Source: an uncultured Gemmatimonadales bacterium (GTDB lineage Bacteria; Gemmatimonadota; Gemmatimonadetes; Gemmatimonadales; GWC2-71-9). Taken from it: 64,000 bases of DNA. How positions within the stretch are numbered: the stretch's first letter is position 1; each line of letters begins with the position of its first letter. The notes beneath the pieces were generated by a model, which saw only the letters and a program-made list of their open reading frames with translations, had not been told where the DNA came from and ran no database searches. The position numbers were made by a program, and so were the translations under genes. Location: positions 431,490 to 495,489 of the forward strand of contig CAWGJN010000001.1 in the NCBI GenBank assembly GCA_963822925.1, in the 5' to 3' direction. Positions 23,642 through 57,388 of the stretch are shown one piece after another.

Positions 23642-24189
23642 CTACTGCAGGGTGACCTGCTGGACCCTGGAATTTCCCGGCACGAAGTAGAACGAGAAGC
23701 GCCGGTCGTCCTTGACGCTCAGCACGTTGACGATGTTCTGCTGGCTGGGGAACATCTCGAACAGCAGGTCGTTGCGGATGCCGAGCTGCTTCGGCGGAAC
23801 GGAGGTGGCGTACTCGACCACGAACCACATCATGGGCTGACCCTGCTCATCGACCTCGACCCCGGACGCCTGGACGATGCCCTTGAGCCGGATACCGTCG
23901 GCCTCTACCCAGACCCGCTCCGCGAGGTACCCGGAGAAGAGGGAGTCGGCATCCTTGCTGGTGCCGAGGTCGAGTTTGCGAAGGTTGTGGAACTTCATCA
24001 ACCCGAGCTGCAGGTCATCCTTGAAGCAGCGGATGCGGGAGACGATGGCCCCGCTGTCCACTGCCATGCGGGTGAGGGTGACGTGGACGTCGTGCCGGGC
24101 CACAGGCGGTGCGGTTGGCGCGCTCGCGGTCATCACGAGCGCGAGCGCCCCAAGCCGCCACGGCTTCCAATGGCGGGCCGCCGACAATC

Positions 24190-24193
<4 letters not shown>
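23642..24193 (-). CDS. DUF6702-like secreted protein
   Basis: Signal peptide then HDVHVTLTRMAVD....IVSRIRCFKDDLQ, resembling the H-x-F/V-H-V-S start of that family. ATGA overlap with the M1 peptidase gene. Confidence 0.5.
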
Positions 24194-26289
<2,096 letters not shown>

Positions 26290-26304
26290 GCAGGCATCCG
26301 TTGG

Positions 26305-26892
26305 TCAGGAGACGGGGTTGAGTCGGTCGACGATCATGGTCAGCGCGACGGCCATCGTGCCGCCGCACAGGATGAGCACCCACTCGCGCCGGGTGAGGCC
26401 CACCACCCGGACAGCGATGACACCCACGAGCATTACCAGGCCGACGATGAAGAGCTGGCCGATTTCGAGGCCGACGTTGAAGGCCAGGAGTGGCTTCGCG
26501 ATCGACTCCTCGCCGCCGAGCAGGCTGCGCAGGAAGGTGGAGAATCCGAGCCCGTGGATCAGCCCGAACGTGGACGCGAGCACGTACTGCGGCAACTGGG
26601 AGCGCGTGGGGCCGCTCTCCTCGGAGTCGCCCTTTGAGAACGCGATTGCCGCGATGCTGGTGAGTACAATCGTCACCGGGATGAGCACCTCGACCAGCTG
26701 CGTCTTCACCCGCACGAGATCCAGCGTAGCCAGCGCCAAGGTCACCGAATGCCCGAGCGTAAAGGCCGTCACCAGCCACACCAGCCGACGCCAGGCCACC
26801 GGCGGGTAGGCCGCCGTCAGTGCCGCAACGAAGAGGATGTGGTCATAGGCCTTCGGGTCGGCGATGTGGCCAAAACCAAGGCGGAGATACAC
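26305..26892 (-). CDS. HupE/UreJ family membrane protein
   Basis: LGFGHIADPKAYDHILFVAALT N-terminus and a 6-TM profile. Confidence 0.7.
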   Translation of the reverse strand: MYLRLGFGHIADPKAYDHILFVAALTAAYPPVAWRRLVWLVTAFTLGHSVTLALATLDLVRVKTQLVEVLIPVTIVLTSIAAIAFSKGDSEESGPTRSQLPQYVLASTFGLIHGLGFSTFLRSLLGGEESIAKPLLAFNVGLEIGQLFIVGLVMLVGVIAVRVVGLTRREWVLILCGGTMAVALTMIVDRLNPVS

Positions 26893-30565: not shown

Positions 30566-31195
30566 ATGCCTCCGAGGGCGCTCCTGGCGAGCGCCCTTCT
30601 TTTTGCCCTCGCGTGCGCACTCGACGGATGGGCATGGCAGCACCTTCGCGTGGACGACGTCTACGGCAAGGACTGGGGACGCCTCTTCCGCATCGCCGGC
30701 TTCCTCCCCACCTGGATGCTGGGGTCCGTGGCGCTCATCCTCAGCGATCGCGGCACCGGTTCACCCGCGCCACGCCGCTTCTGGTGGCGTGGCATGCTGC
30801 TCACTGTGGCGCCGCTCGTGGCAGGGATCGTGTGTGAGCTCCTGAAGGTCCTTCTCCGGCGCGAACGACCCAACCTGCACGACGGCACCTATTTCTTCCG
30901 CGGCTTCAGCGACCACCCCTGGAGCACCTCGGCGATCGGGCTGCCGAGCAGTCATACGATGGTCGCGTTCGCCGGAGCCGGCATGGCGAGCTATCTGTTT
31001 CCGCGGACCTGGCCCGCGTGGATGCTGCTGGCGGGCGGCTGCGCCTTCACCCGAGTCGCGGCGCAGGCGCATTTCCTGAGTGATGTCATGCTGGCGGGAA
31101 TTGCGGGGTTGTTCGTGGCACGGCTGGTGTGGCTCTGGCCCGGACCGTCGGGCTCACATACGCCGAACCGTCCTCGTCGCGACGGAAGGGGCTAG
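30566..31195 (+). CDS. PAP2 family phosphatase
   Basis: KVLLRRERP, PSSHT and RVAAQAHFLSDV correspond to the three PAP2 motifs. Confidence 0.85.
   Translation: MPPRALLASALLFALACALDGWAWQHLRVDDVYGKDWGRLFRIAGFLPTWMLGSVALILSDRGTGSPAPRRFWWRGMLLTVAPLVAGIVCELLKVLLRRERPNLHDGTYFFRGFSDHPWSTSAIGLPSSHTMVAFAGAGMASYLFPRTWPAWMLLAGGCAFTRVAAQAHFLSDVMLAGIAGLFVARLVWLWPGPSGSHTPNRPRRDGRG
30941..31138 (+). repeat. Copy 1 of a ~198-bp direct repeat (the PAP2 3' end); partner at 43621..43818
   Basis: Gap-free alignment at an offset of 12680. I counted 29 mismatches, about 85% identity, including a 47-bp perfect block. Confidence 0.85.
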
Positions 31196-31810
31196 CTGGC
31201 CGAGTAATCCCTCTGCTGCCTGCAAGTACTCCTCGATGTCGAAGTGCTCAGGATCGATCATTGCCTGAACTGCACAACCTTTGATGAAGCTGACTGCGAC
31301 CGCCGCCAATCCGTCGGGCGTGACGTGGGGGAAGCGCAGGGGCTCGGCCTCGAGTACTTCCCCGGCCATTGGACGGAATGCCTCCCGATACCGCGACAGC
31401 TCGCCCCGCATCTTGGTCCCGATCGCCTTGTGCCGGCCGCCCATGACCCAGAACTCGAAGAACAACCTGAGCCGCATCGGCTCCCGTGAGAGGCGGTCCA
31501 TTTCCTGTCTGAGCAGCGCGACCAGGCGCCGGAGCGGGGCTGCGACAAGCCGGATCTCCGGGCCGATGTGAAGGACCGTAGTTGTCGCAAGAAGCCAATC
31601 GAGGAGCGCGACGATGAGCCGGTCTCTCGACCTGAAGTGAAACAGCACCAAGCCAGTGCTCAGCCGCGCCTTGGCCGCAACGAGCCGTACGGTAAGGCCG
31701 TGAAGCCCCTGAGTGGCGGCAACCGCGTACGCCGCTTTGATGATCTGGTCCCTGCGGGTCGTTTCCGACGCCTTGCGTCCCGGCATGTGAAGGCCTTGGA
31801 GATCGTACAA
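31154..31810 (-). CDS. TetR family transcriptional regulator
   Basis: RRDQIIKAAYAVAATQGLHGLTVRLVAAKARLSTGLVLFHF HTH. Its 3' end overlaps the PAP2 3' end by 42 nt (convergent). Confidence 0.85.
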   Translation of the reverse strand: MYDLQGLHMPGRKASETTRRDQIIKAAYAVAATQGLHGLTVRLVAAKARLSTGLVLFHFRSRDRLIVALLDWLLATTTVLHIGPEIRLVAAPLRRLVALLRQEMDRLSREPMRLRLFFEFWVMGGRHKAIGTKMRGELSRYREAFRPMAGEVLEAEPLRFPHVTPDGLAAVAVSFIKGCAVQAMIDPEHFDIEEYLQAAEGLLGQLAPSVATRTVRRM

Positions 31811-31853: not shown

Positions 31854-32243
31854 TCACTCCATCGACCTGCCTATGTCTCCCCGCTCACTCGGCCGGAAAC
31901 TCAGGTCGAACGCGAGGAATAGCGTCTTGGAAAAGGGATAGAAAAACACAGGCATGGTCAGCGCCTCAACCGGACCGACATACTGCAACTGGTCCCAGGG
32001 CGGATTCGGCCACGTCGCCATGACCACGCCAACGAGTACCGTAACAGAGAACGCTTCGGCAGCCAGGAGGTTGAACCAGACGGCGCCAACGCCATAGCCG
32101 TCCTCCCCACGGGAGAATACCAGCCCGCAGCCGGGGCACCGCGCCGTCATAGAGAGCCAGCGCGTGAAGATCGGCCCTCCGCCGCAACGAGGACAGCGAC
32201 GGCGGAGCGCGCGGTAGAGCATCATTCGCTTCGAGGGCAGCAT
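31854..32243 (-). CDS. DUF983 family membrane protein
   Basis: RCPRCGGGPIF...RCPGCGLVF double CxxC followed by two TM helices. Confidence 0.6.
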   Translation of the reverse strand: MLPSKRMMLYRALRRRCPRCGGGPIFTRWLSMTARCPGCGLVFSRGEDGYGVGAVWFNLLAAEAFSVTVLVGVVMATWPNPPWDQLQYVGPVEALTMPVFFYPFSKTLFLAFDLSFRPSERGDIGRSME

Positions 32244-32372
32244 CGTCACTCGAATCGACCGACAGGTGAGTTCACGAGATTGCACGTCATCGCGGCGCTT
32301 GGGTATCGCCCGGTTGAGTTCGGGGGCGCGCCCATGCGCTCACCGGATTGACCGAGGCCGCAATGGATTCTA

Positions 32373-32470: not shown

Positions 32471-32869
32471 GTGTCATCTCACGATGCGCCAGATGAACCC
32501 ACGAGCGACTCAGGCCCGCTTGGCGAACGCGAGCTTGGCGTGGAGTACTGGCGGGCCCCCGAACTCTTCCTGCTTGATGCGGTCCTGACGCTGTTCGGGG
32601 TGATGGAGGCCGCGGGGACTCGGCCGCGAGTGTTCGTGTGCGACCTGCGAGCCGTGCCCATTCTCGATGCCCACGCGTGCCGTGTTATCTCCGTGCTGCT
32701 CGGACGCTGCCGGCGGTCGCGGATGGTGCTGATCCTGAGCGGCGTCGGGCCGACCGCCCTCCGCACCCTCGGAGCCGCCGGGACGCTCGACGAGTTGGGG
32801 CCCAGGAACGTGTTTGCGCATCTGAACGACGCGATGTCGCGCGCGCGCATACTGATGAACGATGACTAG
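32471..32869 (+). CDS. Stand-alone STAS domain protein
   Basis: YWRAPELFLLDAV...VFVCDLRAVPILDAHACRVISVLL...MVLILSGVGPTALRTLGAAG resembles SulP/SpoIIAA-type STAS. Its stop overlaps the convergent NuoB-like gene by 4 nt. Confidence 0.55.
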   Translation: MSSHDAPDEPTSDSGPLGERELGVEYWRAPELFLLDAVLTLFGVMEAAGTRPRVFVCDLRAVPILDAHACRVISVLLGRCRRSRMVLILSGVGPTALRTLGAAGTLDELGPRNVFAHLNDAMSRARILMNDD

Positions 32870-33669
32870 GTAGAGGCGTCGCCGGATCTCGCGCCAGGCG
32901 CACTCTGCCCGTCCAGTTGCCCCAGGAGCCGCAGCAGGCCATCCAGTACGGTCAGCGGATGCGGCGGGCACCCCGCGATCCACAGATCTACGGGCAGGTC
33001 GGCCGGTACTCCATTTCCCACCTCCGGGCTGTCCCGAAAGGGACCGCCATTGATCGCGCACGCGCCCACCGCGATCACCAGTTTTGGTTCCGGGATCGCG
33101 TCGTAGGTGCGATACACCGCGTCCCGCATGTTCCGGCTCACCGCCCCCGTGATCACCAGGCCGTCAGCGTGCCGGGGCGACGCGACGAACTGGATGCCGA
33201 ACCGCGCCATGTCGAAGACGACGTTGCCCAGGGCCACCAGTTCCGACTCGCATCCGTTGCAGCTTCCGGCCGCGACCGAGCGCAGACGCAGCGACCGGCC
33301 GAACAGCGTTCGGATGCGTTGCCCCAGCGCCTCGACGGCGGGGAGCTCCCCCGCCTCGCTGACCAGGCCGGAGCGCTCTCGTGCCGACAGGCGCGGATCG
33401 GCCGTGAAGGTGACGGCCCCATGGCGGCAAGCTGTTGCCTCCTCGGGCGCGAACAGGCACGCGCCAATGTCGAGCGATGCCCGGCCTTCCGGTGTCACGA
33501 CGAGCAGTGTGGAGGGCATAGCTGCCTGACACTCGTGGCAGGTCTCCAGGCATCGGGCGGCATCGAGCACCGGCCTGCCGCGAAAGCGCTCCGGGAACTC
33601 CGCGGCCCCGCCGGGAAATGCCGATGTCCGGGTGCCCTGCGCAAACCGGGTGCGGAGGAAGTCAAGCAT
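32866..33669 (-). CDS. NuoB/HycG/HyfI-like small subunit with a fused, degenerate ferredoxin-like N-terminal ~100 aa
   Basis: GSCNGCE, GACAINGG and GCPPHP (all four proximal-cluster Cys are present). The N-terminus has CLETCHEC...C-x10-C. Confidence 0.85.
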   Translation of the reverse strand: MLDFLRTRFAQGTRTSAFPGGAAEFPERFRGRPVLDAARCLETCHECQAAMPSTLLVVTPEGRASLDIGACLFAPEEATACRHGAVTFTADPRLSARERSGLVSEAGELPAVEALGQRIRTLFGRSLRLRSVAAGSCNGCESELVALGNVVFDMARFGIQFVASPRHADGLVITGAVSRNMRDAVYRTYDAIPEPKLVIAVGACAINGGPFRDSPEVGNGVPADLPVDLWIAGCPPHPLTVLDGLLRLLGQLDGQSAPGARSGDAST

Positions 33670-35180
33670 TAGAGGTCATGCCCCGCGTACGACAGGTTGA
33701 AGCTCTTGTTGCACAGCGGAAAGTCCGAGATCTGGTTTCCCGGCATCGCCGCTGCCAGCGCGCTCCAGTTGTGGAACGACGGATCCACCACCTTGTGCCG
33801 GCGGATCCCCCCGGCCTCGTCGGTGATCACCACGTGCGCGACTTCCCCCCGCCAGCCTTCTTCCAGCGCCACCACCAGTTCCGCGGGCCTGAGCGCGTCG
33901 CATGGCACCTGCGCGGCGCCCTTGGGCAGCGCGCCAACTTGCTCGATCACGAACTCGAGCGAGCGCTGCACCTCCAGCCAGCGCACCAGCGTTCGCGCCA
34001 GGACGTCGCCGGCCCACGCGGTGGACACCGGAATGTGGGCGAACCGGAACACCCCGTACGGGTGGTCGTGCCGCACATCCCGCGACACCTTGCACGCTCG
34101 CGCCGCCACACCGACCAGGCCGAGCTCGAGGCACTGCTGGGGCGTTACGGCACCGACGCCTTCGAGCCGCGCCTGCACCGAGGCGTTCTTGAGCAGCAGG
34201 TGTCCCACCGGGAGCAGCTCCTCGGCCAGCACCGCCAGGCGCGCGCGCATCTCGTCCGCCATCCCGGCCGGGATGTCGAAGAGCGCGCCCCCCGGTCGGA
34301 TGAGGCCCCGTCCGTAGCGGTTGCCCGAGAGGGTCATCAGGAGGTTCAGGCACTCACCCCGCATCCGCCCGAAGTACGCCGCGGCAGGCTGGTATGCGAT
34401 GTCTCCCGCAATCGCGCCGAGATCTCCGATGTGATTGGCCAGGCGCTCCAGCTCGAGGGCGATGCCGCGGATGGTCTGCGCCCTGGGCGTCTTGCGGCTC
34501 CGGGCCAGCGCCTCGATGGCACCGCAGGCGGCGCTCGCATGCGCGATAACGGTATCGCCGGCGATCGACTCCGCGATCAGGACGGCGTCCGGCCATCGGC
34601 GCGTTTCCAGCAGACGCTCGACTCCCCGATGTTGATAGCCGAGCATGATCTCGAGGAAGAGCACCTCCTCACCGTGTGCCTGGAAGCGGAAATGCCCCGG
34701 TTCGATGATGCCCGCGTGCACCGGTCCCACGGCGACCTCGTGAACCTCGCTGCCGTGGATCTGGAAGAATGGATACTCCTCCCGCTCCGCCGTCCCCCTC
34801 GACACCTGCCGACCCGCCTCGTCGGGTGGATGCCGGCGGACCGGCTTGAGCCACGGGTGCCCCTCCGGAACGACGCCGCACTGCTCCGCGATCTCCCGCT
34901 CGAACAGATGTGCCTCCGGGCACTCGGGAGTGAGCGCCGGATACGATCCATCCACCAACGTGGTCAACGCGCCGAGTTGACCGCGCTCATCCTGCGCCAG
35001 GATGGCCACCAGTTGGATCCGGTCCGCGAAGCCGGGCATGCCGAAGAACGCGACGAGCCGCCAGCCGTCCCGCACCGCCTGGCACACCGTGTCCCGGAAG
35101 CGTGGCACCGTCTCCATGGGGAGTGCCGCGAACGGGATGGTGCGGCGGTTGCGCAGGCCCAGTCCATCGAAGGCCGTCAT
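33669..35180 (-). CDS. NuoC+NuoD / HycE / HyfG-like 'large subunit' lacking all four [NiFe] cysteine ligands
   Basis: ATG 35180 overlaps the upstream stop (ATGA). EPGHFRF...YQHRGVERL are family motifs. SIAGDTVIAH replaces R-x-C-G-x-C-x3-H, and the protein ends NLSYAGHDL in place of DPCxxCxxR. Confidence 0.85.
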   Translation of the reverse strand: MTAFDGLGLRNRRTIPFAALPMETVPRFRDTVCQAVRDGWRLVAFFGMPGFADRIQLVAILAQDERGQLGALTTLVDGSYPALTPECPEAHLFEREIAEQCGVVPEGHPWLKPVRRHPPDEAGRQVSRGTAEREEYPFFQIHGSEVHEVAVGPVHAGIIEPGHFRFQAHGEEVLFLEIMLGYQHRGVERLLETRRWPDAVLIAESIAGDTVIAHASAACGAIEALARSRKTPRAQTIRGIALELERLANHIGDLGAIAGDIAYQPAAAYFGRMRGECLNLLMTLSGNRYGRGLIRPGGALFDIPAGMADEMRARLAVLAEELLPVGHLLLKNASVQARLEGVGAVTPQQCLELGLVGVAARACKVSRDVRHDHPYGVFRFAHIPVSTAWAGDVLARTLVRWLEVQRSLEFVIEQVGALPKGAAQVPCDALRPAELVVALEEGWRGEVAHVVITDEAGGIRRHKVVDPSFHNWSALAAAMPGNQISDFPLCNKSFNLSYAGHDL

Positions 35181-37242: not shown

Positions 37243-38154
37243 TCACCGCAGCAGGAGGATCACGCCGACGACGGCCAGGGCACCGGCCGCCACGAGGAAC
37301 TGGGGAAGCCGGTTCATCCGCAGTCGCGCCATGCTTGCTTCGACGATGCCGACGCCAACCGCCACTGCCACGAGTCCGCCGAGCAGGATCAGCGCCGCCA
37401 GCGGGGGCGACACCAGTGCGCGCGGCACCACGAGGCTCACCACCAGCGCGCCGAAGAGCGCGAGCTTGAGGGCGCTGCCGAACAGGATCATGGCGAGCTC
37501 CGGCCCGCTGTGATCGAGCACGATCACCTCGTGGATCATCGTGAGTTCGAGATGGGTCCCGGGATCGTCTACCGGCACCCGGGACGTCTCCGCGAGCGCC
37601 AGCATGAACAGGGCGACGGCCGTGAGGGCGAGCGATGGCAGGGTCAGGACCCAGACCGCCGCGAGCCGCTCTCCCAGCATGCCGGCAAGCGACAGTTCAC
37701 CGGTGGCGAGGACCAGCACCGTGAAGCAGAGGAACAGCACCGGCTCGGCGAAGGCGGAGACCGTGACTTCCCGGCTCGCCCCCATCCCCTCGAAGCTCGA
37801 CCCCGTATCCAGACCGGCGAGCACGAGCGCGAAGCGGCCCAGTGCCAGTAATCCGGCGAACGCAACGAGATCTCCGGAGAAGCTGAGCAGTGCCGAATGA
37901 CCGTCCAGCGGGAGGAGCGCAGCGGCGACGAGCACCGTCGCGAGGACCACGATCGGCCCGATGCGGAACACCGCCGTCGTAGTGCCGCTGTAGACGACAT
38001 TCTTCCGGAGCAGCTTCGCCAGGTCCCGGTACAGCTGCAGCACGGGTGCTCCCCGGCGCCCCGTCAGAAACGCCCGGGTGCGCGTCGCGATACCGGGCAA
38101 GGCGGGAGCCACGGCCAGGACCATCACCAGCGTCACGAAAGGCCAGGGCGTCAT
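37243..38154 (-). CDS. HycD/HyfC (NuoH)-like membrane subunit
   Basis: RRGAPVLQLYRDLAKLLRK and AETSRVPVDDPGTHLELTMIHEVIVLDHSG. ATGA overlap upstream. Confidence 0.85.
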   Translation of the reverse strand: MTPWPFVTLVMVLAVAPALPGIATRTRAFLTGRRGAPVLQLYRDLAKLLRKNVVYSGTTTAVFRIGPIVVLATVLVAAALLPLDGHSALLSFSGDLVAFAGLLALGRFALVLAGLDTGSSFEGMGASREVTVSAFAEPVLFLCFTVLVLATGELSLAGMLGERLAAVWVLTLPSLALTAVALFMLALAETSRVPVDDPGTHLELTMIHEVIVLDHSGPELAMILFGSALKLALFGALVVSLVVPRALVSPPLAALILLGGLVAVAVGVGIVEASMARLRMNRLPQFLVAAGALAVVGVILLLR

Positions 38155-40124
38155 GCTCCGCCCTGCCACTTCATCAGGTGATAAAGCAGAAGAAGCAGCG
38201 TGGAGACGACGGCCAGGAGGTACCATCGGATGCGCGCGCCCGGCCATGCTCGCAGGTGCCGGCTCCAGTCATCCAGTGCCCGCCACGCCGGCAGTACCAC
38301 CTGGTCCTGAACCAGGTCCACCGGGTGAGAGTGAAAGCTCGTCGGCTTTCGGGCCTCCCACACTGCGGCGAGCGGTCCGAATGCGGACAGCAGCGGCGCC
38401 GCAAAGGACGACGCGGTGTACTGCATTCTCGGGGTCAGCCCCGGCCCCGCGCACGCCCACGTCGCGCCGGCGCGGACCTCCCCCGCTCGGCCCAGGTACC
38501 CGCGGAAGAGCAGCACCGCGCCCCCAACCAGGATGAGTGCCGCGGCCACCGTGGAAACGCCCGTCGCCCCGGCGGCCCACGTCTGCACCCCGGTGCTTCC
38601 GTCCATCATTCGTGCCACGCTTGCGGCGACCAGCCGGACCGGCGCCAGCACCAGCGTCGGCACGAGGCCGATGACTGCGCAGAAGCCCGCGAGGACCAGC
38701 GCCGGCACCACCATGCCCGCCGTCGGTTCGCTCGCAGCGAGGCCATCGCCGAGGGGCGCGCGCGGCAGCCCGAGGAAGAGCACGCCATCGAGCTTGCTGA
38801 AGCACGCCAGCGCGAGCCCGCCGATCAGCGCCAGTCCCGCCGCGCCGAACACCACGAACCGCATCGCCTCCGTTGACTCCGCGGCCGTGAAGAGCGCGCC
38901 GAACACGACCCACTCGCTCACGAAGCCGTTGAGCGGCGGCAATCCCACGATGGCCACCGACCCGATGCCGAATGCCACCGCCGTCAGCGGCATCCGGCGC
39001 GCGAGACCGCCCAGCCGGTCGATCTCCCGCGTGCCCGTCGCCCGCACCACCGCCCCCGCGCCCAGGAACAGCAGACTCTTGAACAACGCATGGTTCAGCG
39101 TGTGCAGCAGTGCCCCCATGAACCCCAGCAGCGCCACCACCGGATGGCCATAGACCATCCCCAGGACCCCGACGCCCATGCCCAGCAGGATGATTCCGAT
39201 GTTCTCGACGCTGTGGTAGGCAAGCAGCCGCTTGAGATCGTGCTGGCCCAGCGCCCACAGCACGCCCAGCACACCCGACACCAGTCCCAGCCCGAACAGG
39301 GTCCACCCGAACCAGGCCGGCGGGGAGCCCAGGAGGTTGAGCACCCGGAGCAGCCCGTAGATCCCCATCTTGAGCATGACGCCGGATAGCACCGCGGAGA
39401 CGTGCGACGGGGCCGCGGCGTGCGCGCCCGGCAACCAGAAGTGCAGCGGGACGGCGCCGGCCTTGATGCCGAATCCCACGAGCGCAAAGACCAGCGCGAG
39501 CGTGCGCCCCGTGCTCGCGGCCTGGCTTCCGGCGGCGAGGTCGGCGAAGCTGCGGCCTTCGGCATGCGCGCTCAGGGCGGCAAACATCCCGAAGAGCGCG
39601 AGGAGGCTCGTATGGGTGAGCACGATGTAGACCAGGCCCGCGCGACGAACCTCGCCCCGCTCACTCTCGAACACGACGAGCAGGTACGCGCTCACCGCCA
39701 TCACTTCCCAGGAGGCGAGGAACGGCATCATCGCCTGCGACGTGACCACCCCGACCAGGGCCACCAGGAGCAGGGCGAACAGGCCGTGCACCACGTGGAC
39801 ACTGCGATGCGCGCGCTCCGGCGCCAGGTACGCCGTCCCGAACACTCCGGCGGCGGCCCCGACAGGGAGAATGACCAACACGAACCAGGCCGAGAGCGGA
39901 TCGAGACCAAAGCTCCACGGACCACCGGGCAGTGACCCCGCAAGTGCGGCGGTCGGCACCGGTGCGCCACCCAGCACACGGATCGCTGGAATTACTCCCA
40001 GGACGCACCCGGCGAGGAGCAACACGGCGTAGAGTCGGTCGGCTGCGGTGCTCCATCGCCGAAAGAGCACCGCGCAGACGGCGCCTGCCAGAATGCAGCC
40101 CGCGCCCCAGATGAGCCCGCTCAC
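38151..40124 (-). CDS. HyfB/HycC (NuoL)-like antiporter-type subunit, copy 2
   Basis: 657 aa. WLPGAHAAAPSHVSAVLSG core and a C-terminal TWACAGPGLTPRMQYTASSFAAPL extension. GTGA overlap upstream. Confidence 0.85.
   Translation of the reverse strand: MSGLIWGAGCILAGAVCAVLFRRWSTAADRLYAVLLLAGCVLGVIPAIRVLGGAPVPTAALAGSLPGGPWSFGLDPLSAWFVLVILPVGAAAGVFGTAYLAPERAHRSVHVVHGLFALLLVALVGVVTSQAMMPFLASWEVMAVSAYLLVVFESERGEVRRAGLVYIVLTHTSLLALFGMFAALSAHAEGRSFADLAAGSQAASTGRTLALVFALVGFGIKAGAVPLHFWLPGAHAAAPSHVSAVLSGVMLKMGIYGLLRVLNLLGSPPAWFGWTLFGLGLVSGVLGVLWALGQHDLKRLLAYHSVENIGIILLGMGVGVLGMVYGHPVVALLGFMGALLHTLNHALFKSLLFLGAGAVVRATGTREIDRLGGLARRMPLTAVAFGIGSVAIVGLPPLNGFVSEWVVFGALFTAAESTEAMRFVVFGAAGLALIGGLALACFSKLDGVLFLGLPRAPLGDGLAASEPTAGMVVPALVLAGFCAVIGLVPTLVLAPVRLVAASVARMMDGSTGVQTWAAGATGVSTVAAALILVGGAVLLFRGYLGRAGEVRAGATWACAGPGLTPRMQYTASSFAAPLLSAFGPLAAVWEARKPTSFHSHPVDLVQDQVVLPAWRALDDWSRHLRAWPGARIRWYLLAVVSTLLLLLYHLMKWQGGA
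38905..39455. repeat. Near-identical segment shared with 40872..41422 (offset 1967)
   Basis: 213 bp with 1 mismatch (38905..39117), a diverged ~110 bp, then ~149 bp with 1 mismatch (39231..39379). Read directly. Confidence 0.85.
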
Positions 40125-43610: not shown

Positions 43611-43863
43611 GGCCGTAGGCCTGCCGAGCAGCCATACCATGGTGGCCTTCGCCGGAGCGGGCATGGGAAGCTTTCTCTTTCCGCGGACCTGGCCCGCATG
43701 GATGTCGCTCGCGGCAGGGTGTGCGTTCACCCGCGGCGCGGCGCAGGCGCATTTCCTGAGTGATGTCATGCTGGCGGGAATTGGAGGGCTCTTCGTAGCA
43801 CGGCTGGCATGGCACTGGGGCGCTTGGCTATCCCGCCGGCCGACGGCCAAAGAGGATTATTGA
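43611..43863 (+). pseudogene. 3' fragment of a second PAP2 phosphatase gene (motifs 2 and 3 only)
   Basis: GLPSSHTMVAFAGAGMGSFLFPRTWPAWMSLAAGCAFTRGAAQAHFLSDVMLAGIGGLFVARL is about 88% identical to residues of the 30566..31195 protein. The N-terminal two thirds are absent. Confidence 0.8.
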
Positions 43864-43888
43864 CAGAACAACTATACAACTATATAGT
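43860..43888 (+). promoter_or_regulatory. Sigma-70-type promoter TTGACA-N17-TATAGT in an AT-rich island
   Basis: TTGACA 43860..43865, a 17-nt spacer, TATAGT 43883..43888. The 10-bp palindrome ACTATATAGT (43878..43887) overlaps the -10. Confidence 0.5.
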
Positions 43889-43895
43889 AATGCAT

Positions 43896-45272
43896 ATGAG
43901 GACACCTCCCAGCGACGACCGGCAGCCCCGGACCAGCCTCGCTCTCGCGGCCCTGACGCTCTTGTCCGTGTCGAGCCTGGCCGCCCAGCAGCCGCTGACC
44001 CTGGCCGACGCCTTCCGCCGCGCCGACTCGGCCGCGTTCGCCAATCGCATCGCCGCCGGCGATGCCCGCATCAGCAGCGCCGGGGCCACCGCGACGCTTC
44101 AGGGGATCCTCCCCACGGTCCGTGCCGTGGCGGGCTACGTCCGGTCCAACGACCCGCTCGCTGCCTTCGGGTTCACCCTGCAGCAGCGCGCCGTGACGCT
44201 TGAGTCCTTCAACCCGGCGAGCCTCAACTACCCCGCCCCTGTCACCAACTGGAATGGCGGGTTCGTCGCTGAAGTCCCTCTCATCAATGTCGACGCCTGG
44301 TACGGCCGCGCCGCCGCCTCGAGCGCCGCCGCCGCCGCGACTGCGAGTACCCAGTGGACTCGCGAGGTTACCCGCGTCAACATAGTTCGTGCCTACTTCG
44401 GCGCTGTCCTCGCCGGCGAGCAGGCCACGACCCTCGTCAGCTCCGCGGAAGCCGCCCATGCCCACGTGCGCCAGGCGGAATCGATGGTCGCCAACGGCAT
44501 GGCCACGCGCTCCGACGCCCTGCTCGCCTCGGTGCAGGCCGGCCAGGTCGACGCGCAACTCATCGGCGCAACGGGCGAGGCGCGCATTGCCCGCCATCGC
44601 CTGGCCGTCGTCCTTGGCCAGCCAGGAGACACCAGCTTCACCCTGCCCGATTCGCTGCCGTTGGCCGCAACCATTCGCGCCCTGCCTCCCGACTCCGGCC
44701 CTGACTCCGCCAGCGCACGCCTCGACGTGACGGCCGCCCGGCTCGGCGTCGAAGCCGCGCAGCGCGACGTGCGCCGTGCCAACGCGAAGTACCTCCCCCG
44801 CGTCAACGGCTTCGGTCGCTACGACTGGAACAGCCCCGACCAGCCATTTGGCGGTCAGGGCAGTTACACCGTTGGCATCATGGCATCGTGGTCACCCTTC
44901 TCCGGCGCGTCCGAGATCGCGGCTCGGCAGGAGGCGCGCGGCCGTGCTGAGGCCGCGAGCGCCGGGGCCGAAGCCGCCGCGGCGACCGCCAATCTCGAGC
45001 GGCAAGCCACCGCCACCCAGCGTGAGGTAGCCCTCGTCCGGCTCGACATCGCCGAGACCGCGGTGGTGCAGGCCGCGGAGGCACATCGCATTGTCGCCCG
45101 GAAGTACGCCGGCGGGCTCGCGACGGTCGCAGAGCTCCTCGCGGCCGCCGCGGTCGAGACCCAGGCGCGCCTCGCACTCTCTGAATCCCGGTACCAGGTC
45201 ATCGTTTCCGACGCTGCCGCCCGGCAGGCGACCGGGCGCGACCTGATGGCCCTCACTGCGCTGGAGAACTGA
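43896..45272 (+). CDS. TolC-family outer-membrane efflux protein
   Basis: Signal peptide LALAALTLLSVSSLAAQQPLTLADAF. Two-repeat OEP pattern. An alternative ATG lies at 43890. Confidence 0.8.
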   Translation: MRTPPSDDRQPRTSLALAALTLLSVSSLAAQQPLTLADAFRRADSAAFANRIAAGDARISSAGATATLQGILPTVRAVAGYVRSNDPLAAFGFTLQQRAVTLESFNPASLNYPAPVTNWNGGFVAEVPLINVDAWYGRAAASSAAAAATASTQWTREVTRVNIVRAYFGAVLAGEQATTLVSSAEAAHAHVRQAESMVANGMATRSDALLASVQAGQVDAQLIGATGEARIARHRLAVVLGQPGDTSFTLPDSLPLAATIRALPPDSGPDSASARLDVTAARLGVEAAQRDVRRANAKYLPRVNGFGRYDWNSPDQPFGGQGSYTVGIMASWSPFSGASEIAARQEARGRAEAASAGAEAAAATANLERQATATQREVALVRLDIAETAVVQAAEAHRIVARKYAGGLATVAELLAAAAVETQARLALSESRYQVIVSDAAARQATGRDLMALTALEN

Positions 45273-45273
45273 C

Positions 45274-46293
45274 ATGCGAACGCTGATGCCGGAATCCGGC
45301 CTCCTGCTCGCGACGCTGGTACTCGCCGCATGCGGCGCCGATGCCGCCCCCGCGGTGGTCGAACGGACCGCGGTCACCGGGACGCCCGTCGCCGTGATCG
45401 ATACGCTGATCCCCGATGTCCTCGAGGCGTCCGGCACCGCAACGCCGATTCGCGCCGCCACCCTGAGCACCAAGCTCATGGGATCGGTCACGACCGTCCT
45501 GGTGCATGAGGGGGATCGAGTCGCCTCCGGCCAGTCGCTGGTCCGGCTCGATGCGCGCGACCTCGAAGCGAAGCGGAGCCAGGTCGAGGCCGGGCTCGCC
45601 GAGGCCACCGCGATGCGCGTCGAGGCGAGGGCACACGCCGAGCGCATCCGCGGGCTCTATGCCGACAGCGCCGCCACGAAGGCGCAGCTCGACCAGGCCG
45701 AGACCGGCCTCGCGCGTGCTGATGCCGCCACGGCCTCGGCCCGCGCCATGGCCACCGAACTCGCCGCGACCGCCTCCTACGCCGACGTGCGCGCACCCTT
45801 CGGCGGCATCGTCACCCGGCGATTCGTTGACCCTGGTTCCTTCGCGGCGCCGGGGACTCCGCTGATCACAGTGGAGGACGCCTCCACGCTGCGGGTCACG
45901 GTGAGCGCGGCACCCGATGCGGTGCGCGGCCTGCGGCGTGGCAGTACCATCGCCGCGGTGATCGGCGATTCGGTCGCGGCCGCCACCGTGGAGGGCGTGG
46001 TCCCGTCCGGCGCCAATCTCTACACGGTGAACGCACTCGTGCCCAACGCGACCGGGAGCTTCCAGAGCGGGAGCTCAGCCTCGCTCGCGTTGCCACGCGG
46101 CACCCGGCGCGCTCTCCTCGTGCCCACGGCCGCGATTGTCCGTCAGGGTGACCTCGCCGGCGTCCGTCTCGCGACGACCGGTTCCTCTTCCCTCCGGTGG
46201 ATCAAGCTTGGCCGCAGTACTACCTCGCTGGTGGAGGCGCTGTCGGGCCTGGCCGCCGGCGACACCGTCCTCGTGCCGGCCGGGACTCGCTGA
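45274..46293 (+). CDS. Efflux RND periplasmic adaptor (MFP/HlyD family) lipoprotein
   Basis: Lipobox LVLAACG. The family pattern GQSLVRLDARDLEA...YADVRAPFGGIVTRRFVDPG is present. Confidence 0.85.
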   Translation: MRTLMPESGLLLATLVLAACGADAAPAVVERTAVTGTPVAVIDTLIPDVLEASGTATPIRAATLSTKLMGSVTTVLVHEGDRVASGQSLVRLDARDLEAKRSQVEAGLAEATAMRVEARAHAERIRGLYADSAATKAQLDQAETGLARADAATASARAMATELAATASYADVRAPFGGIVTRRFVDPGSFAAPGTPLITVEDASTLRVTVSAAPDAVRGLRRGSTIAAVIGDSVAAATVEGVVPSGANLYTVNALVPNATGSFQSGSSASLALPRGTRRALLVPTAAIVRQGDLAGVRLATTGSSSLRWIKLGRSTTSLVEALSGLAAGDTVLVPAGTR

Positions 46294-46296
46294 GCC

Positions 46297-49200
46297 ATGG
46301 GCATTGCCGGCCGGGTCGCGCAGGCTTTTCTCCGTTCCAAGCTCACGCCGCTGGTGACGGTGGCGTCACTCGCCGTCGGCGCCGTGGCGATGCTCGCCAC
46401 GCCGCGCGAGGAAGAGCCGCAGATCTCCGTGCCGATGATCGACGTGATGGCCACGCTGCCCGGCGCGTCGCCCACCGAGGTCGAGAACCTCCTCACCCGG
46501 CCGATCGAGAAGCTCATGTGGCAGGTTCCGGGCGTCGAGTACGTGTACTCCATGGCCGGCGAGGGCATGACGCTTGTGACCGTGCGCTTCAAGGTCGGTG
46601 AGGACCAGGATCGCGCCGTCAGTCGCGTCTTCGCGAAGATCGGCGCGGAGGCCGACCGCGCTCTGCCCGGCATCATGCCGCCGCTCATCAAGCCCCACTC
46701 GATCGACGACGTGCCGATCCTGGCGCTCACGCTTCATGGCGGTGGCTACGGCTCCGACGCCCTGCGCGCCCTGGCCACCCATCTGGCCGACGACCTCGCC
46801 ACCATCCCCGACCTGGCCCGCATCGACCTGATCGGCGGCGAGCCCACCCAGTTGCGCGTGACGCTCGACCCGTCGCGACTGGCCGGCAGCGGCGTCACCC
46901 CGGGCGAGGTGATGCAGGCGCTGCGCGCCGCCAACGTACAGTTGCCCGCCGGCGAGTACGCCACCGCCAACGAGGTGTTCCTCGTGTCGGTGGGCGCGCC
47001 CATCCGCACCGCGCGTGATGCCGGCGACGTCGTGGTGGCCAATCGCACGGGACCCGTCTACCTGCGCAATGTGGCCACGGTCGTCGAGGCGCCTGCCGAA
47101 GCCGCCGACTACGTGAGCCACACGGCACGCGGTGAGTCCGGCGAGCAGGCCGTCACTCTTGCCATCGCCAAGCGGCCCGGCGTCAACGCCACGGACATCG
47201 CCCACCTCGCCCTGGCCCGGGTGGAGGAGGTGCGCGGACGGCTGCTGCCGGCCGACGTCCGCGTGAACGTCACCCGCAACTACGGCGAGACCGCGAACGA
47301 GAAGGCCAATGAGCTCATGCTCCACCTGCTCATCGCGACCCTCTCGGTCACGGTGCTCATCGGGCTCTTCCTGGGATGGCGGGAGGCGGTGGTCGTACTG
47401 GTCGCGGTACCGGTCACCCTCGCGCTGACGCTCTTCGTCTACTACGTGCTCGGGTATTCCCTCAACCGGATCACCCTCTTCGCGCTGATCTTCTCCATCG
47501 GCATCCTGGTGGATGATGCCATTGTGGTGGTAGAGAACATCTACCGTCACCTGCAGATGGGCGACCGGGAGCCGGAAGTCGCAGCGGTCGAGGGCGTCGA
47601 CGAGGTGGGCAACCCCACGATCCTCGCCACCTTTACCGTCATCGCGGCGATCCTGCCCATGGCATTCGTCTCCGGTCTCATGGGGCCCTACATGCGGCCC
47701 ATCCCGGTGGGCGCGTCCGCCGCAATGCTTGCGTCGCTCGCAGTGGCGTTCATCATCACCCCGTACCTCGCATTGCGCCTGCTCCGCGGCCACGTCAAAC
47801 AGGTGGCCACACCTCATGATGCCACCCACGAGCCGGGGGAAGCCTCGCGGTTCGCGAAGTTGTATGACCGCATCATGGCGCCGCTGATGGACCGCCCGCG
47901 CCTGCGCACCGGGTTCTACGCCGGGATAATGGCGCTCCTCCTCGGTTCGGTCAGCCTCCTGGCGCTCAAGCTGGTCGAGGTCAAGATGCTGCCCTTCGAC
48001 AACAAGTCGGAGTTCCAGGTCGTGCTCGACCTGCCGGAGGGCGCGACGCTCGAGACCTCCAATGCCGCCGCGCAGGCGGTGGCGACGTACTTGGGCACCG
48101 TGCCGGAGGTCGTGAGCACCGAGAGCTACGCCGGCACCGCCGCGCCCTTCAACTTCAACGGCCTGGTGCGGCACTACTTCATGCGCCGTGCTCCCAACGT
48201 TGCCGACGTGCAGGTGAACCTGTTGCCCAAGGGCGATCGCCGCCGCCAGAGCCACGCCATCGCCGTTGTCGGTCCGCCCGGCAGTGGACTCGATCGCCCG
48301 GGCCTTCGGCGCAAATGCCAAGATCGCGGAGATTCCGCCCGGTCCACCCGTCCTCTCCACCCTCGTGGCCGAGGTCTACGCCGCCGACGACAGCACCCGG
48401 CTCGTGGCGGCGCGAGCATGTCAAGGCGATCCTGCTCGCGACACCCGGCGTGGTCGACGTGGACTGGACCGTGGAAGCTCCCGAGGCGAAGCGCCTCTTC
48501 CGGGTGGACCGGGTGCGTGCGGCCGAGGCCGGTGTGTCGGTGGAACAGGTGGCCCAGGCGCTCACGATGTCCCTGTCGGGCGCCGGCGCCGGGCTGGCCA
48601 GCGTGCCGACGGCCCGCGAGGGTGTGCTCATCGTGCCGCGGCTCGGCCTCGCGAGCCGGAGCGGCGTCGAGGCACTGCTCGCCGTCCCGGTCGCGACGCC
48701 GCACGGGCCCACGCCACTCGCGCGCTTCGTCACGGTGGATTCCACCACGCGCGAGCCGCTGCGCATGCGCAAGAACCTCCGCCCCGTCATCTATGTCACG
48801 GGCGACGTCGCCGGCACCATCGAGTCGCCGGTGTACGCGATCCTGGCCATGAACCGCGCGCTCGACACGCTCCGGGTGAATGGGGCCGCGATCAAGCGCT
48901 ACAACGCCACCGCGCCGACGCGCCTCGACGAAACCGCCATCAAGTGGGATGGCGAGTGGCAGGTCACCATCGAGGTGTTCCGCGACCTCGGCATCGCCTT
49001 CGCCGCGGTGCTGGTGCTGATCTATGTGCTGGTGGTGGGCTGGTTCCAGTCGTTCAAGGTCCCGCTCGTCATCATGGCGCCGATCCCCTTGACCCTGATC
49101 GGCATCCTCCCGGGGCATGCGCTCACCGGCGCCTTCTTCACCGCCACGTCCATGATCGGGATGATCGCGCTCGCCGGGATCATCGTCCGGAACTCGATCC

Positions 49201-54414: not shown

Positions 54415-54627
54415 ATGACCCCCCTTGTTCTCAGTATCAATGGCATGTCATGCGGACACTGTCTCAACGCAGTGCGGCGCGCGCTCAGCAACACGCCCGG
54501 CGTGGCCATCGAGTCGGTGCGCATCGGCCGCGCGGATGTGCTGTACGATCCCGCGCTGACTTCGCCGGCGCGTGTTGCCGCCGCTGTCACCGACGCCGGC
54601 TACGAAGCCGCCGCCCATGTCGGATAA
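54415..54627 (+). CDS. copZ: Copper chaperone, HMA domain
   Basis: [24 protein letters not shown] (MxCxxC). GGAGAG lies 5 nt upstream. Confidence 0.85.
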
Positions 54628-57061
54628 TCACGGAACCCACACGCATCCCGCTCCCGGCGGGACGGGCACGCCTGCGCACGCAGCAACGGAAGCTGCGCAA
54701 CAGCGCCTCCGCCTCGACGTCACCGGCATGACCTGCGCCGCCTGCAGTTCGCGCGTGCAGCGCGTGCTGGAGCGCACTCACGGCGTGAGCGGCGCCAATG
54801 TCAATCTCATGACGAAAACCGCTGCCGTCGATTTCGATCCTGCTGTCACGTCGCCGGAAGGACTGGTGGCCGCGGTCGAGGGCGCCGGGTACGGTGCCTC
54901 GGTTGATCCTGACAGCATGCCGGCGCTGCGCCACGTGCATCGTCACGAACGCGCCGCGACGCCCGCCGAGGCAACGGCACCGGCGGCCAGGCACGTCCAC
55001 CAGCACGCGGCCGGCATTACTCCCTGGGTGCCGCTCGCGTTCTTCGCGCTGTCGATGATCATCTCGATGCTGCTCGACGCCATCCCCGGCGGATCGGGTC
55101 ATGTCATGAACGATCCGCTGATGCACCTCATGCAGCCGGTCACGGTGCTCCTGCACCGGTGGATTCCCGGCGTCGCCGCGGTGCCCGCGCCAACCTGGCG
55201 CTGGGCCCTTCTCGCGCTCACGCTTCCCGTGGTGCTGGTGCACGGCCGTCACTTCTACGTCCGGGCGTGGGCCGCCGCGAAACACCGTGCCGCGGACATG
55301 AACACCCTCATTGCCCTGGGCACCGGCGCGGCACTGCTTTTCAGTATCGCGACCACGGTCGCCGGGCCCTGGTTCGAGCAGCAGGGCGTGGCGCCCGCCG
55401 TCTACTACGAGGCGGTCATCGGCATCATCGCACTCATCGTGACCGGTCAGTGGCTCGAGGAGCGCGCGAAGGGCCGGGCATCGGCGGCGCTCGACCGGCT
55501 CCTCGCTCTCCGCCCGCAAAACGTGCGCGTGGTCCGGCCCGGTGGCGACATCGAAGTCCCCATCACCCAGCTCGCGACCGGCGACGAGTTCCGCGTGCGC
55601 CCCGGCGAGTCCATTGCCGCCGACGGCGTCATCGTCGAGGGCCAGGGCAGCGTGGACGAGTCCATGCTCACCGGCGAACCGGTGCCGGTCGAGCGCCGCG
55701 CGGGTGACGAGGTCGTGGGCGGCACCGTGAGCCGCACCGGTGCGCTTCGCGTACGCGTCGTCCGCACCGGCGCTGATTCCGTGCTCTCTCGCATCATCCG
55801 CCTTGTGCGCGAAGCCCAGGAAACCCGCGCCCCCATCCAGCGGCTGGCTGATCGCATTGCGGGCATCTTCGTGCCGGTGGTGGTGCTCATCGCCATCGCC
55901 GCCGCAGCCGTCTGGTATCTTCTCGGGCCCGAGCCCCGTCTCCTCAATGCGCTCGTGGCGGCGGTCACGGTCCTCATCATCGCCTGCCCCTGTGCCATGG
56001 GACTTGCCGTTCCAACGGCCGTGATGGTCGGTACCGGCCGTGGCGCCGAAATGGGGATCCTGGTGCGCGGTGGCGAGGCGATCGAGCGGGGCGAGAAGAT
56101 CGACCTCGTGCTGCTCGACAAGACCGGCACCGTCACTGAGGGCCGCCCTCGCGTCACCGCCGCGGTGATGGCGGCGGGCGCCCCCATCGATCGCGATGCA
56201 CTCATTGTCCTGGCCGCCGCCGTCGAGCAGGCAAGCGAGCATCCGCTCGCCGATGCCGTGCTGGCGGCAGTGCCTCCGGGCAGTACCCTGCCCGAGGTAC
56301 GCGACCTCGATATCGCCGCCGGTCGTGGCATCGCCGGGACCGTGGCCGGCCGTCGCATTGCCATTGGCAATGCCGACTTCATGCACGCCAGCGGTGTCAC
56401 CACGACCGAGCTCGATGCGGTCGCGTCGGAACACGCCGCCATGGCCGCGACTCCGGTCTTCATCGCGGTTGACGGTGCATTGGCCGGCATGCTCGCCATT
56501 GCCGATCCCGTCCGTGCCACCAGTGCCGCCGCGATCCGCACGCTGCGCGAGCGCGGCCTCCAGACCGTCCTTCTCACCGGCGACCGGCGCGACACTGCCG
56601 ATGCAGTTGCACGCCAGGTGGGGATCACTACGGTCGAGGCCCAGGTATCACCCGACCGCAAGCTCGATGTCGTGCGGAAGTACCAGGAACAGGGCTGTCG
56701 CGTGGCCATGGTGGGAGACGGGCTCAACGATGCGCCGGCGCTCGCCCAGGCCGATCTCGGGGTGGCGATGGGTGGCGGCACCGATGTCGCGCTCGAAACC
56801 GCCAGCGTCACTCTCCTGCGCAATGACCTCCGCGGCGTCGGTGACGCCTTCGCGCTTGTGAAGCAGACCATGCGGGTCATCCGCCAGAACCTTGGATGGG
56901 CCTTCATCTACAACATCATCTGCATCCCGGTCGCCGCCGGCGTGCTCTATCCCGGCTTCGGCATCCGCCTCACACCGACCATGGCCGCGGCCGCGATGGC
57001 CTTGAGCAGCGTAAGCGTGGTGGCCAACAGCCTGCGGTTGAAGCGGTTTACATCCGCGTGA
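54617..57061 (+). CDS. copA: Copper-translocating P1B-type ATPase
   Basis: [23 protein letters not shown] and [11 protein letters not shown] motifs. Its start overlaps the copZ end by 11 nt. Confidence 0.95.
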
Positions 57062-57085
57062 ACGCAGTTCGTTACGGAGCGTCTC

Positions 57086-57388
57086 ATGAACACGGAATCC
57101 CGTCACGCCGACATCGACCCGGCCACCAAGCAGTCGCTGCTCAACCGCCTGCGCCGCATCGAGGGGCAGGTCCGCGGGCTGCAGCGCATGGTGGAGGAAG
57201 AGCGCTACTGCGCCGATGTGCTCACCCAGGTGCAGTCGGTGCAGGAAGCTTTGCGTGGGGCGGGACGGGAGCTGCTGGAGAATCACCTGCGGCACTGCAC
57301 CACGGCGGCCTTGCGGTCCAACGACCCCGCTCGCGCGGAAGAGATCTACCAGGAGCTGCTCGAACTCGCCTGGCGCTCCGCCCGCTAG
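57086..57388 (+). CDS. csoR: CsoR/RcnR/FrmR family metal-sensing repressor
   Basis: LLNRLRRIEGQVRGLQRMVEEERYCADVLTQV....HLRHC (C-H-C ligand pattern). Confidence 0.85.
   Translation: MNTESRHADIDPATKQSLLNRLRRIEGQVRGLQRMVEEERYCADVLTQVQSVQEALRGAGRELLENHLRHCTTAALRSNDPARAEEIYQELLELAWRSAR

Follow-up and report, generated by a model that had tools for sequence, protein, structure and literature searches.

Can a hydrogenase-like large subunit that has lost every ligand of its nickel-iron centre still be a working part of a membrane complex, and what might such a complex do? The question is raised by a gene on a 64-kb stretch of contig CAWGJN010000001.1 from an uncultured Gemmatimonadales bacterium (the window; coordinates are positions in it unless said otherwise). 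An initial annotation had aligned the product by eye with group-4 [NiFe] hydrogenases and proposed that all four metal-binding cysteines are replaced and that the protein ends exactly at the position of maturation cleavage. We refer to this protein as EhrL: judging by sequence and gene order it very probably belongs, as a large subunit without hydrogenase function, to a Gemmatimonadota membrane complex of the Ehr type (Ech-hydrogenase-related or energy-converting hydrogenase-related).

The former Ni-Fe site of EhrL

The EhrL open reading frame (ORF) lies on the minus strand, with an ATG at 35180 and a stop codon at 33671–33669, and encodes 503 amino acids. The ATG shares 4 nt with the stop of the upstream gene, which encodes EhrD, and nearly all homologues are 500–509 residues long, most of them exactly 503; both observations support this start and make a longer, GTG-initiated ORF (to 35420) unlikely. 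Pfam models Complex1_30kDa (PF00329) and Complex1_49kDa (PF00346, 1.1e-37) identify EhrL as a fusion of NuoC-like and NuoD-like parts. The NiFeSe_Hases model stays below its cut-off, and no NCBIfam equivalogue model reaches its own. In a phmmer search against all PDB chains E. coli HycE ranked first (7z0s_E, 7.5e-45), followed by Thermus thermophilus Nqo4 (1.1e-33) and Pyrococcus furiosus MbhL (1.7e-33); MbsL (6u8y_L) was detectable at 2.9e-21. When the last 64 residues or the 122-residue motif region of EhrL served as PDB query, MbsL was not among the hits.

Formal alignment bears out the by-eye register and puts no cysteine at any of the four ligand positions. The segment ESIAGDTVIAH of EhrL lies under DRVCGICGFAH of HycE and ERMCGICSFSH of MbhL, with A207 opposite C241 and T210 opposite C244 (native HycE numbering, to which the PDB chain 7z0s_E adds 12). 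At the other end of the protein, NLSYAGHDL-stop lies under DPCYSCTDR of HycE and equally under NKSFELCYSCTDR of the nearest true hydrogenases. Here, C531 is matched by S497, C534 by G500, and R537, the residue after which HycE is cleaved in HycE/HycI maturation, by L503, the last residue of EhrL. Both ligands of the L1 motif (RxCGxCxxxH) and both ligands of the L2 motif (DPCxxCxxH/R) are thus absent, and the end of the protein coincides with the cleavage position. The flanking motifs that had been described as intact are in place (EPGHFRF at 160–166, YQHRGVERL at 182–190). Two other cysteines, C219 and C490, lie near the former site but off the ligand positions. We rejected these two and position 499 as substitute metal ligands for this protein, since EhrL has Ala at 499 and no cysteine at any of the three sites occurs throughout the family.

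HycE (7Z0S chain E, group 4a) is the closest PDB entry in both sequence and fold and shares with EhrL the NuoC-NuoD fusion and the loop EPGHFR. It differs in having C241, C244, C531 and C534 and a 32-residue extension that is removed after R537, and in its partners, the separate HycF and HycG and a formate dehydrogenase, none of which apply to EhrL. Structure prediction, which the initial annotation had suggested for inspecting the former Ni-Fe pocket, did not give access to it: an AlphaFold2 model built on 38 aligned sequences (72–91% identity) has a mean predicted local distance difference test (pLDDT) score of 65, with segments 203–219 and 487–503 below 50, and is therefore unfit for viewing the pocket. 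A Foldseek search with this poor model still places 7z0s_E first and confirms the HycE/NuoCD fold.

Conservation of the remodelled site and assignment to the Ehr family

To place the substitutions in a family context, we searched 1.84 billion cluster representatives (50% clusters) exhaustively with HMMER and used MAFFT --auto for alignment. The search yielded 825 representatives at E<1e-30. About 135 of the 150 best carry the pattern [A/S/C]-G-D-[T/S] ... NKSFNLSY-x-G-x-DL-stop, and only six of the 150 have all four cysteines (CCCC). In a close set of 120 homologues from Gemmatimonadota and neighbours (72–96% identical, nearly all 500–509 residues long), E204, I206, A207, G208, D209, V211 and H214 do not vary, position 210 is T or S, and 118 of the proteins end in the same nine residues.

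Comparison of 83 full-length cysteine-less representatives with the six CCCC representatives separates what the two groups share from what sets them apart. G500 and D502 are invariant in the 83 proteins, and S497 is S in 82. Nearly all family positions conserved at 90% or more are common to the CCCC relatives, among them H155, E160, R238, E243, D368, R370, D392, R396, E441, R444 and D502; the Glu-bearing β1-β2 loop (H155...E160-P-G-H) and the remaining hydrogenase core are intact. Apart from the start Met, the two groups part at this threshold at two ligand positions (S497 and G500), at D209, at D466-P467 and at the C-terminal residue, L503; the remaining two ligand positions (207 and 210) and D260 are likewise different in the CCCC relatives but fall below the 90% cut-off. 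Small residues take the place of the lost ligands (A or S at the first, T or S at the second, then S and G). Position 209, between the first two former ligand positions, is D in 78 of the 83 cysteine-less proteins (94%) but V, A or M in the CCCC relatives. Position 260 is D in 70 of 83 versus G in five of six, positions 466–467 are D-P versus S-A, and position 503 is L versus R. On this alignment, three Ehr-specific aspartates, D209, D260 and D466, accompany the loss of the cysteines, a correlation of which we found no earlier report. D260 aligns with Nqo4 D139, and DPSF resembles a NuoD motif; these parallels fit the literature view of Ehr as 'intermediate between hydrogenase and complex I'.

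EhrL is under purifying selection. Against seven orthologues the ratio of nonsynonymous to synonymous substitution rates (dN/dS) is 0.13–0.25, and internal stops and frameshifts are absent. With the substituted residues themselves conserved and dN/dS low, the active site has been specifically remodelled and has not decayed, and the replacement residues are under selection. The earlier proposal of a specific active-site loss without general decay holds.

A further remark of the initial annotation, that there is no C-terminal extension requiring an endopeptidase, is correct for EhrL but is not tied to the loss of the cysteines. All six CCCC representatives (35–40% identity) finish in ...NKSFELCYSCTDR-stop, without a tail, and an Eisenbacteria genome (locus L016) encodes, beside its Ehr cluster, a large subunit with the cysteines that ends in ...NLCHACTDK-stop. 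Since these nearest true hydrogenases also lack the extension, its absence is ancestral to this group-4 branch and not a consequence of metal-site loss. The six CCCC hydrogenases resemble EhrL in their tail-less end as well as in nearly all of the highly conserved positions, and differ from it in their four cysteines and at the aspartate and terminal positions listed above. The Eisenbacteria gene (6415–7842 of its own locus, minus strand) belongs to a second, divergent cluster beside Ehr and has all four cysteines, the first two in ERLCGTCAFSH; its extended reading frame contains one internal stop, which may be due to a frameshift or to the way the frame was extended.

The assignment to Ehr rests on the match of the seven-gene set, its order and the cysteine-less large subunit with Geobacter Ehr. 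The type locus is G. sulfurreducens GSU0739–0745 (Coppi 2005 and Marreiros et al. 2013, as cited in PMC7894505, PMC4758237 and PMC6349859); EhrA, EhrC, EhrL and EhrS are listed for GSU0739–45, and all Ehr subunits have been seen by proteomics in Geobacter (PMC7894505). Ehr complexes are defined by missing CxxC motifs, are stated to be of unknown function (PMC4378227, PMC10284858, PMC6349859, PMC6728331, PMC4758237) and have been placed next to group 4f hydrogenases (PMC10284858). Cysteine loss as such is not new, since it is the defining trait of the family (PMC4378227, PMC10284858, PMC6349859, PMC7894505), and EhrL is a new Gemmatimonadota member of a known family. We compared it with Geobacter through orthologues in metagenome-assembled genomes, G. 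sulfurreducens PCA itself being outside the fetched loci. Three Geobacter/Geobacteraceae loci (L065, L075 and L078) show 52–53% identity over the full EhrL and the same synteny. The window and Geobacter Ehr have in common the genes and their arrangement (EhrA, EhrA, B, C, D, L, S), the cysteine-less large subunit and the proximal cluster. The window differs in the absence of three of the eight ferredoxin-type cysteines from EhrS, in A instead of C at EhrL position 499, in a second paralogue of the regulator-like gene upstream, and in gene conversion between the EhrA genes.

Relatives of EhrL occur in at least 574 species-level genomes (one genome per species), of which the best 80 loci were fetched. 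These come from at least ten phyla and include Gemmatimonadota (64–83% identity), Eisenbacteria, Acidobacteriota, Planctomycetota, Verrucomicrobiota, Kiritimatiellae, Myxococcota, Omnitrophota, Latescibacterota and Geobacter/Desulfuromonadales (50–58%); the order A(A)-B-C-D-L-S recurs wherever the contig spans the cluster. Ehr is among the most widespread relatives of complex I and hydrogenases without a known function, and our literature searches found no functional study of, or biochemical data on, any Ehr complex. Cysteine-less homologues (P0004, P0092 and others) go under the name 'Ni,Fe-hydrogenase III large subunit' in IMG and 'NADH-quinone oxidoreductase subunit C' at NCBI, and such routine mis-annotation inflates predictions of H2 metabolism in metagenomes. 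The Mycobacterium tuberculosis Rv0082-Rv0087 'hyc' cluster has been described as homologous to EHR complexes in a host said to be without maturation genes (PMC6728331), and it too is hydrogenase-like.

The small subunit, the PtsN-like companion and possible roles of the complex

EhrS joins a HycF-like ferredoxin domain (residues 1–105; 7z0s_F 2.8e-4, NCBIfam PRK12387) to a HycG/NuoB-like domain (residues 120–255; 7z0s_G 2.6e-31). The cysteines of the proximal [4Fe-4S] cluster in the latter, C137, C140, C204 and C234, are each C in 74–76 of 76 orthologues. In other phyla, 38 of 41 loci also retain all eight ferredoxin-type cysteines, and with them all 12 Fe-S cysteines of EhrS. Four of the eight are present in five of seven Desulfuromonadales loci, and some Gemmatimonadota have lost up to all eight, in part through deletion of the first motif. 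Judged by these ligands, the ferredoxin-like clusters are decaying in Gemmatimonadota while the proximal cluster is invariant; we found no earlier report of this decay.

Directly upstream of the first EhrA gene lies a gene for a protein that combines a helix-turn-helix domain (HTH_17) with a PtsN-like enzyme IIA (EIIA) domain; the stop of this gene and the EhrA-1 start share 4 nt. Such a gene stands in this place, on the same strand, in 45 of the 54 loci with enough upstream DNA, across phyla. The histidine of its phospho-histidine motif, GDGIAIPHVRN, is retained in 49 of 50 orthologues. No mention of a link between HTH-EIIA proteins and Ehr was found in the searchable literature. In E. coli, PtsN controls K+ transport. 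The window has a second HTH-EIIA paralogue, which some of the Gemmatimonadota loci also carry upstream as a gene of its own.

Our tentative reading, possible but far from assured, is that Ehr works by a specific redox-coupled, quinone-linked mechanism. The complex would be unable to make or split H2, and its former Ni-Fe pocket would now be a polar and acidic cavity that is free of metal and adjoins the proximal cluster. A redox change of this cluster would be linked there to protonation or to binding of an acceptor, most plausibly menaquinone, and the conserved loop would relay the event to the membrane arm, which has three antiporter-like subunits and would move ions. Expression would probably be governed by the phosphorylation state of the PtsN-like regulator (the nitrogen-related phosphotransferase system, PTS-Ntr, reporting carbon, nitrogen or K+ status).

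Several observations count against this scheme, beginning with the acceptor. In complex I, quinone is ligated by His38 and Tyr87 of Nqo4. When we made the comparison with this His/Tyr pocket that the initial annotation had proposed, the two residues aligned with I159 and G208 of EhrL. The proximal motif of EhrS, GSCNGCE, is a hydrogenase-type CxxC as in HycG and MbhJ, not the tandem CC of NuoB N2. No partner oxidoreductase is conserved near the cluster, and grouping all ORFs within 5 kb of it over the 80 loci brought up no partner gene that recurs across phyla. Other observations speak against electron throughput. EhrS of the window has only five of eight ferredoxin-type cysteines left (pattern CCCM/CAEC, 33669–33355), all 23 Gemmatimonadota loci have between none and five (zero to four outside the window), and the ferredoxin-like domain evolves three to four times faster than the NuoB-like domain (dN/dS 0.21–0.39 versus 0.05–0.13). 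Going by the usual ligation of 2x[4Fe-4S] ferredoxins and the N6a/N6b assignment in T. thermophilus Nqo9, the cluster lost is presumably the one adjacent to the proximal cluster. In this lineage the electron wire looks broken.

The same decay, seen in 23 of 23 Gemmatimonadota loci and as a reduction in five of seven Desulfuromonadales loci while the remaining complex is conserved, would suit a redox-independent ion transporter, a Mrp-type cation/proton antiporter or other secondary ion mover, in which EhrL and EhrS serve as a structural cap or a regulatory or sensing module and the proximal [4Fe-4S] cluster is structural or a redox sensor. The lack of a conserved donor or acceptor module near the cluster, the intact charged residues of the three antiporter-like subunits and the conserved PtsN-like companion, given the established PtsN-K+ link in E. 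coli, point the same way. We consider this the main rival explanation for Gemmatimonadota but still rather unlikely, because the full Fe-S set of EhrS in most loci of other phyla is hard to explain without electron transfer. Moreover, the same EhrL pocket motif is found in clades with and without ferredoxin clusters, and the Ehr-specific aspartates and retained E160 loop suggest pocket chemistry or protonation. A bolder variant, to which we give somewhat less credence still, is that Gemmatimonadota Ehr is no electron-throughput enzyme but a hydrogenase-derived machine for ion or K+/H+ homeostasis, gated by redox or metabolic state. It is prompted by the shedding of the ferredoxin-like wire under continued selection on the proximal cluster, the aspartate pocket and three antiporter-like subunits, together with the PtsN-like regulator found across phyla. 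If true, such a function would be one not known for any complex I relative.

Another hydrogenase-derived complex, MBS of Pyrococcus, no longer makes H2 but still pumps ions; its 13 subunits include a full Mrp module, and it reduces polysulfide at an Fe-S cluster, not at a Ni-Fe site. An Ehr that likewise reduces a soluble, non-quinone substrate at its proximal cluster would account for the invariance of that cluster, for the presumed polar cavity in place of the Ni-Fe site and for the detectable homology to MbsL, and Ehr occurs in lineages in which no full quinone biosynthesis pathway was identified (PMC6349859). We regard this as improbable. The similarity of EhrL to the MBS/MBX type (6U8Y) is far below that to HycE or MbhL, the seven structural genes include no MrpE/F/G-like genes, that is, none of the extra Mrp subunits of MBS, sulfur-metabolism genes are absent from the vicinity of the cluster, both in the window and in the 80 loci, and the host phyla are mostly aerobic soil heterotrophs. 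EhrL shares with NuoD/Nqo4 and NuoB the fold and the lack of a Ni-Fe site, and the Complex1_49kDa match, the Asp at the Nqo4 D139 position and the DPSF-type motif could be taken to make it a true NuoCD subunit, as NCBI names some homologues. This is very improbable: EhrL scores 191 bits against a cut-off of 360 (NF004739) and 162 against 459 (TIGR01962), the quinone-ligating His and Tyr are replaced, EhrS has CxxC instead of CC, the membrane subunits are of the Hyf/Hyc type, and the NADH-oxidising NuoE/F/G module is absent. Least credible of all is a non-functional hydrogenase relic under relaxed selection, as has been assumed for Geobacter Ehr (PMC13194489). The absence of all four catalytic cysteines and of hyp maturation or endopeptidase genes among the ~30 genes of the window scanned with Pfam would suit a relic. 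Yet selection and conservation refute it: the seven orthologue pairs show low dN/dS without stops or frameshifts, the replacement residues are themselves conserved, and the fetched genomes, which come from at least ten phyla, preserve synteny as well as translational coupling. The detection of every Ehr subunit as protein in Geobacter (PMC7894505), together with our selection data, contradicts the assumption of non-function. Ehr is no new class, but the aspartates, the ferredoxin-cluster loss and the near-universal PtsN-like companion offer handles for experiments on its function.

Operon organisation and neighbouring genes

EhrL is the sixth gene of a tightly packed minus-strand operon with overlaps of 1–7 nt (Table 1). 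The best NCBIfam match of EhrD, hydrogenase 4 subunit F, is below its cut-off, and the Pfam match of EhrC to Oxidored_q2 is weak. EhrA-1 keeps the charged ion-path residues of HycC (WEIMALSAY, GMKAG, LNHALFKS, VSEW). Over a central 539 bp, EhrA-1 (41400–40872) and EhrA-2 (39433–38905) are 94% identical, with two blocks at 98–99%, and the flanks are just 56–57% identical; the tract looks like a recent gene conversion over the conserved core of transmembrane helices TM7–TM12. Scans for promoters and terminators at the ends of the cluster gave nothing decisive.

Table 1. Genes and motifs of the Ehr locus, in window coordinates.
Feature	Position	Strand	Match or basis
EhrL, large subunit, NuoC-NuoD/HycE-like fusion, 503 aa	33669..35180	minus	Pfam, PDB phmmer, conservation
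Former L1 nickel-binding motif, E204-S-I-A207-G-D209-T210-V-I-A-H214	34539..34571	minus	HycE there: D-R-V-C-G-I-C-G-F-A-H
Former L2 motif and C-terminus, N495-L-S497-Y-A-G500-H-D502-L503-stop	33669..33698	minus	HycE there: D-P-C-Y-S-C-T-D-R
EhrS, small subunit, 267 aa	32866..33669	minus	Pfam Oxidored_q6; HycF-like + HycG/NuoB-like fusion
EhrD, HyfF/NuoN-like antiporter-type membrane subunit, 474 aa	35177..36601	minus	Pfam Proton_antipo_M 1e-43
EhrC, HyfE-like membrane subunit, 212 aa	36601..37239	minus	NCBIfam hydrogenase 4 membrane subunit 7.8e-27, below cut-off
EhrB, NuoH/HycD-like membrane subunit, ~304 aa, start codon inferred	37243..38157	minus	Pfam NADHdh 1.9e-33
EhrA-2, HyfB/HycC/NuoL-like antiporter-type subunit, 657 aa	38151..40124	minus	Pfam Proton_antipo_M 5.8e-52
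EhrA-1, HyfB/HycC/NuoL-like antiporter-type subunit, 659 aa	40121..42100	minus	PDB HycC 7z0s_C 1.3e-73
HTH_17 + PtsN-like EIIA protein, 235 aa	42097..42804	minus	Pfam; PDB PtsN 3urr 3.2e-11
Second HTH_17 + EIIA paralogue, 237 aa	42809..43522	minus	Pfam

On the downstream side, a STAS-domain ORF (32471–32869, plus strand) converges on the end of EhrS. Beyond it lie a DUF983 gene (31854–32285, minus) with a promoter-like site of its own (32396–32367) and a TetR/BetI-type regulator (31154–31810, minus). A TetR gene adjoins the Ehr cluster in eight loci, mostly of Gemmatimonadota, and is downstream in seven of them; a SulP-type transporter is found near the cluster in four loci. At a distance of 6 kb from the operon, genes for a HupE/UreJ_2 membrane protein, an M1 peptidase and a DUF6702 protein occupy 23642–26892 (minus); we saw no link of this group to hydrogenase maturation, the family name notwithstanding. 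Divergent from the Ehr operon, a resistance-nodulation-division (RND) efflux set at 43809–48852 (plus) encodes an outer-membrane factor, a membrane-fusion protein and an AcrB-like pump. The ORF of the pump has only 851 codons and covers profile positions 11–630 of 1021, and it may be truncated or frameshifted. Beyond this set, a heavy-metal P-type ATPase and a CsoR-like repressor are encoded at 54572–57388 (plus).

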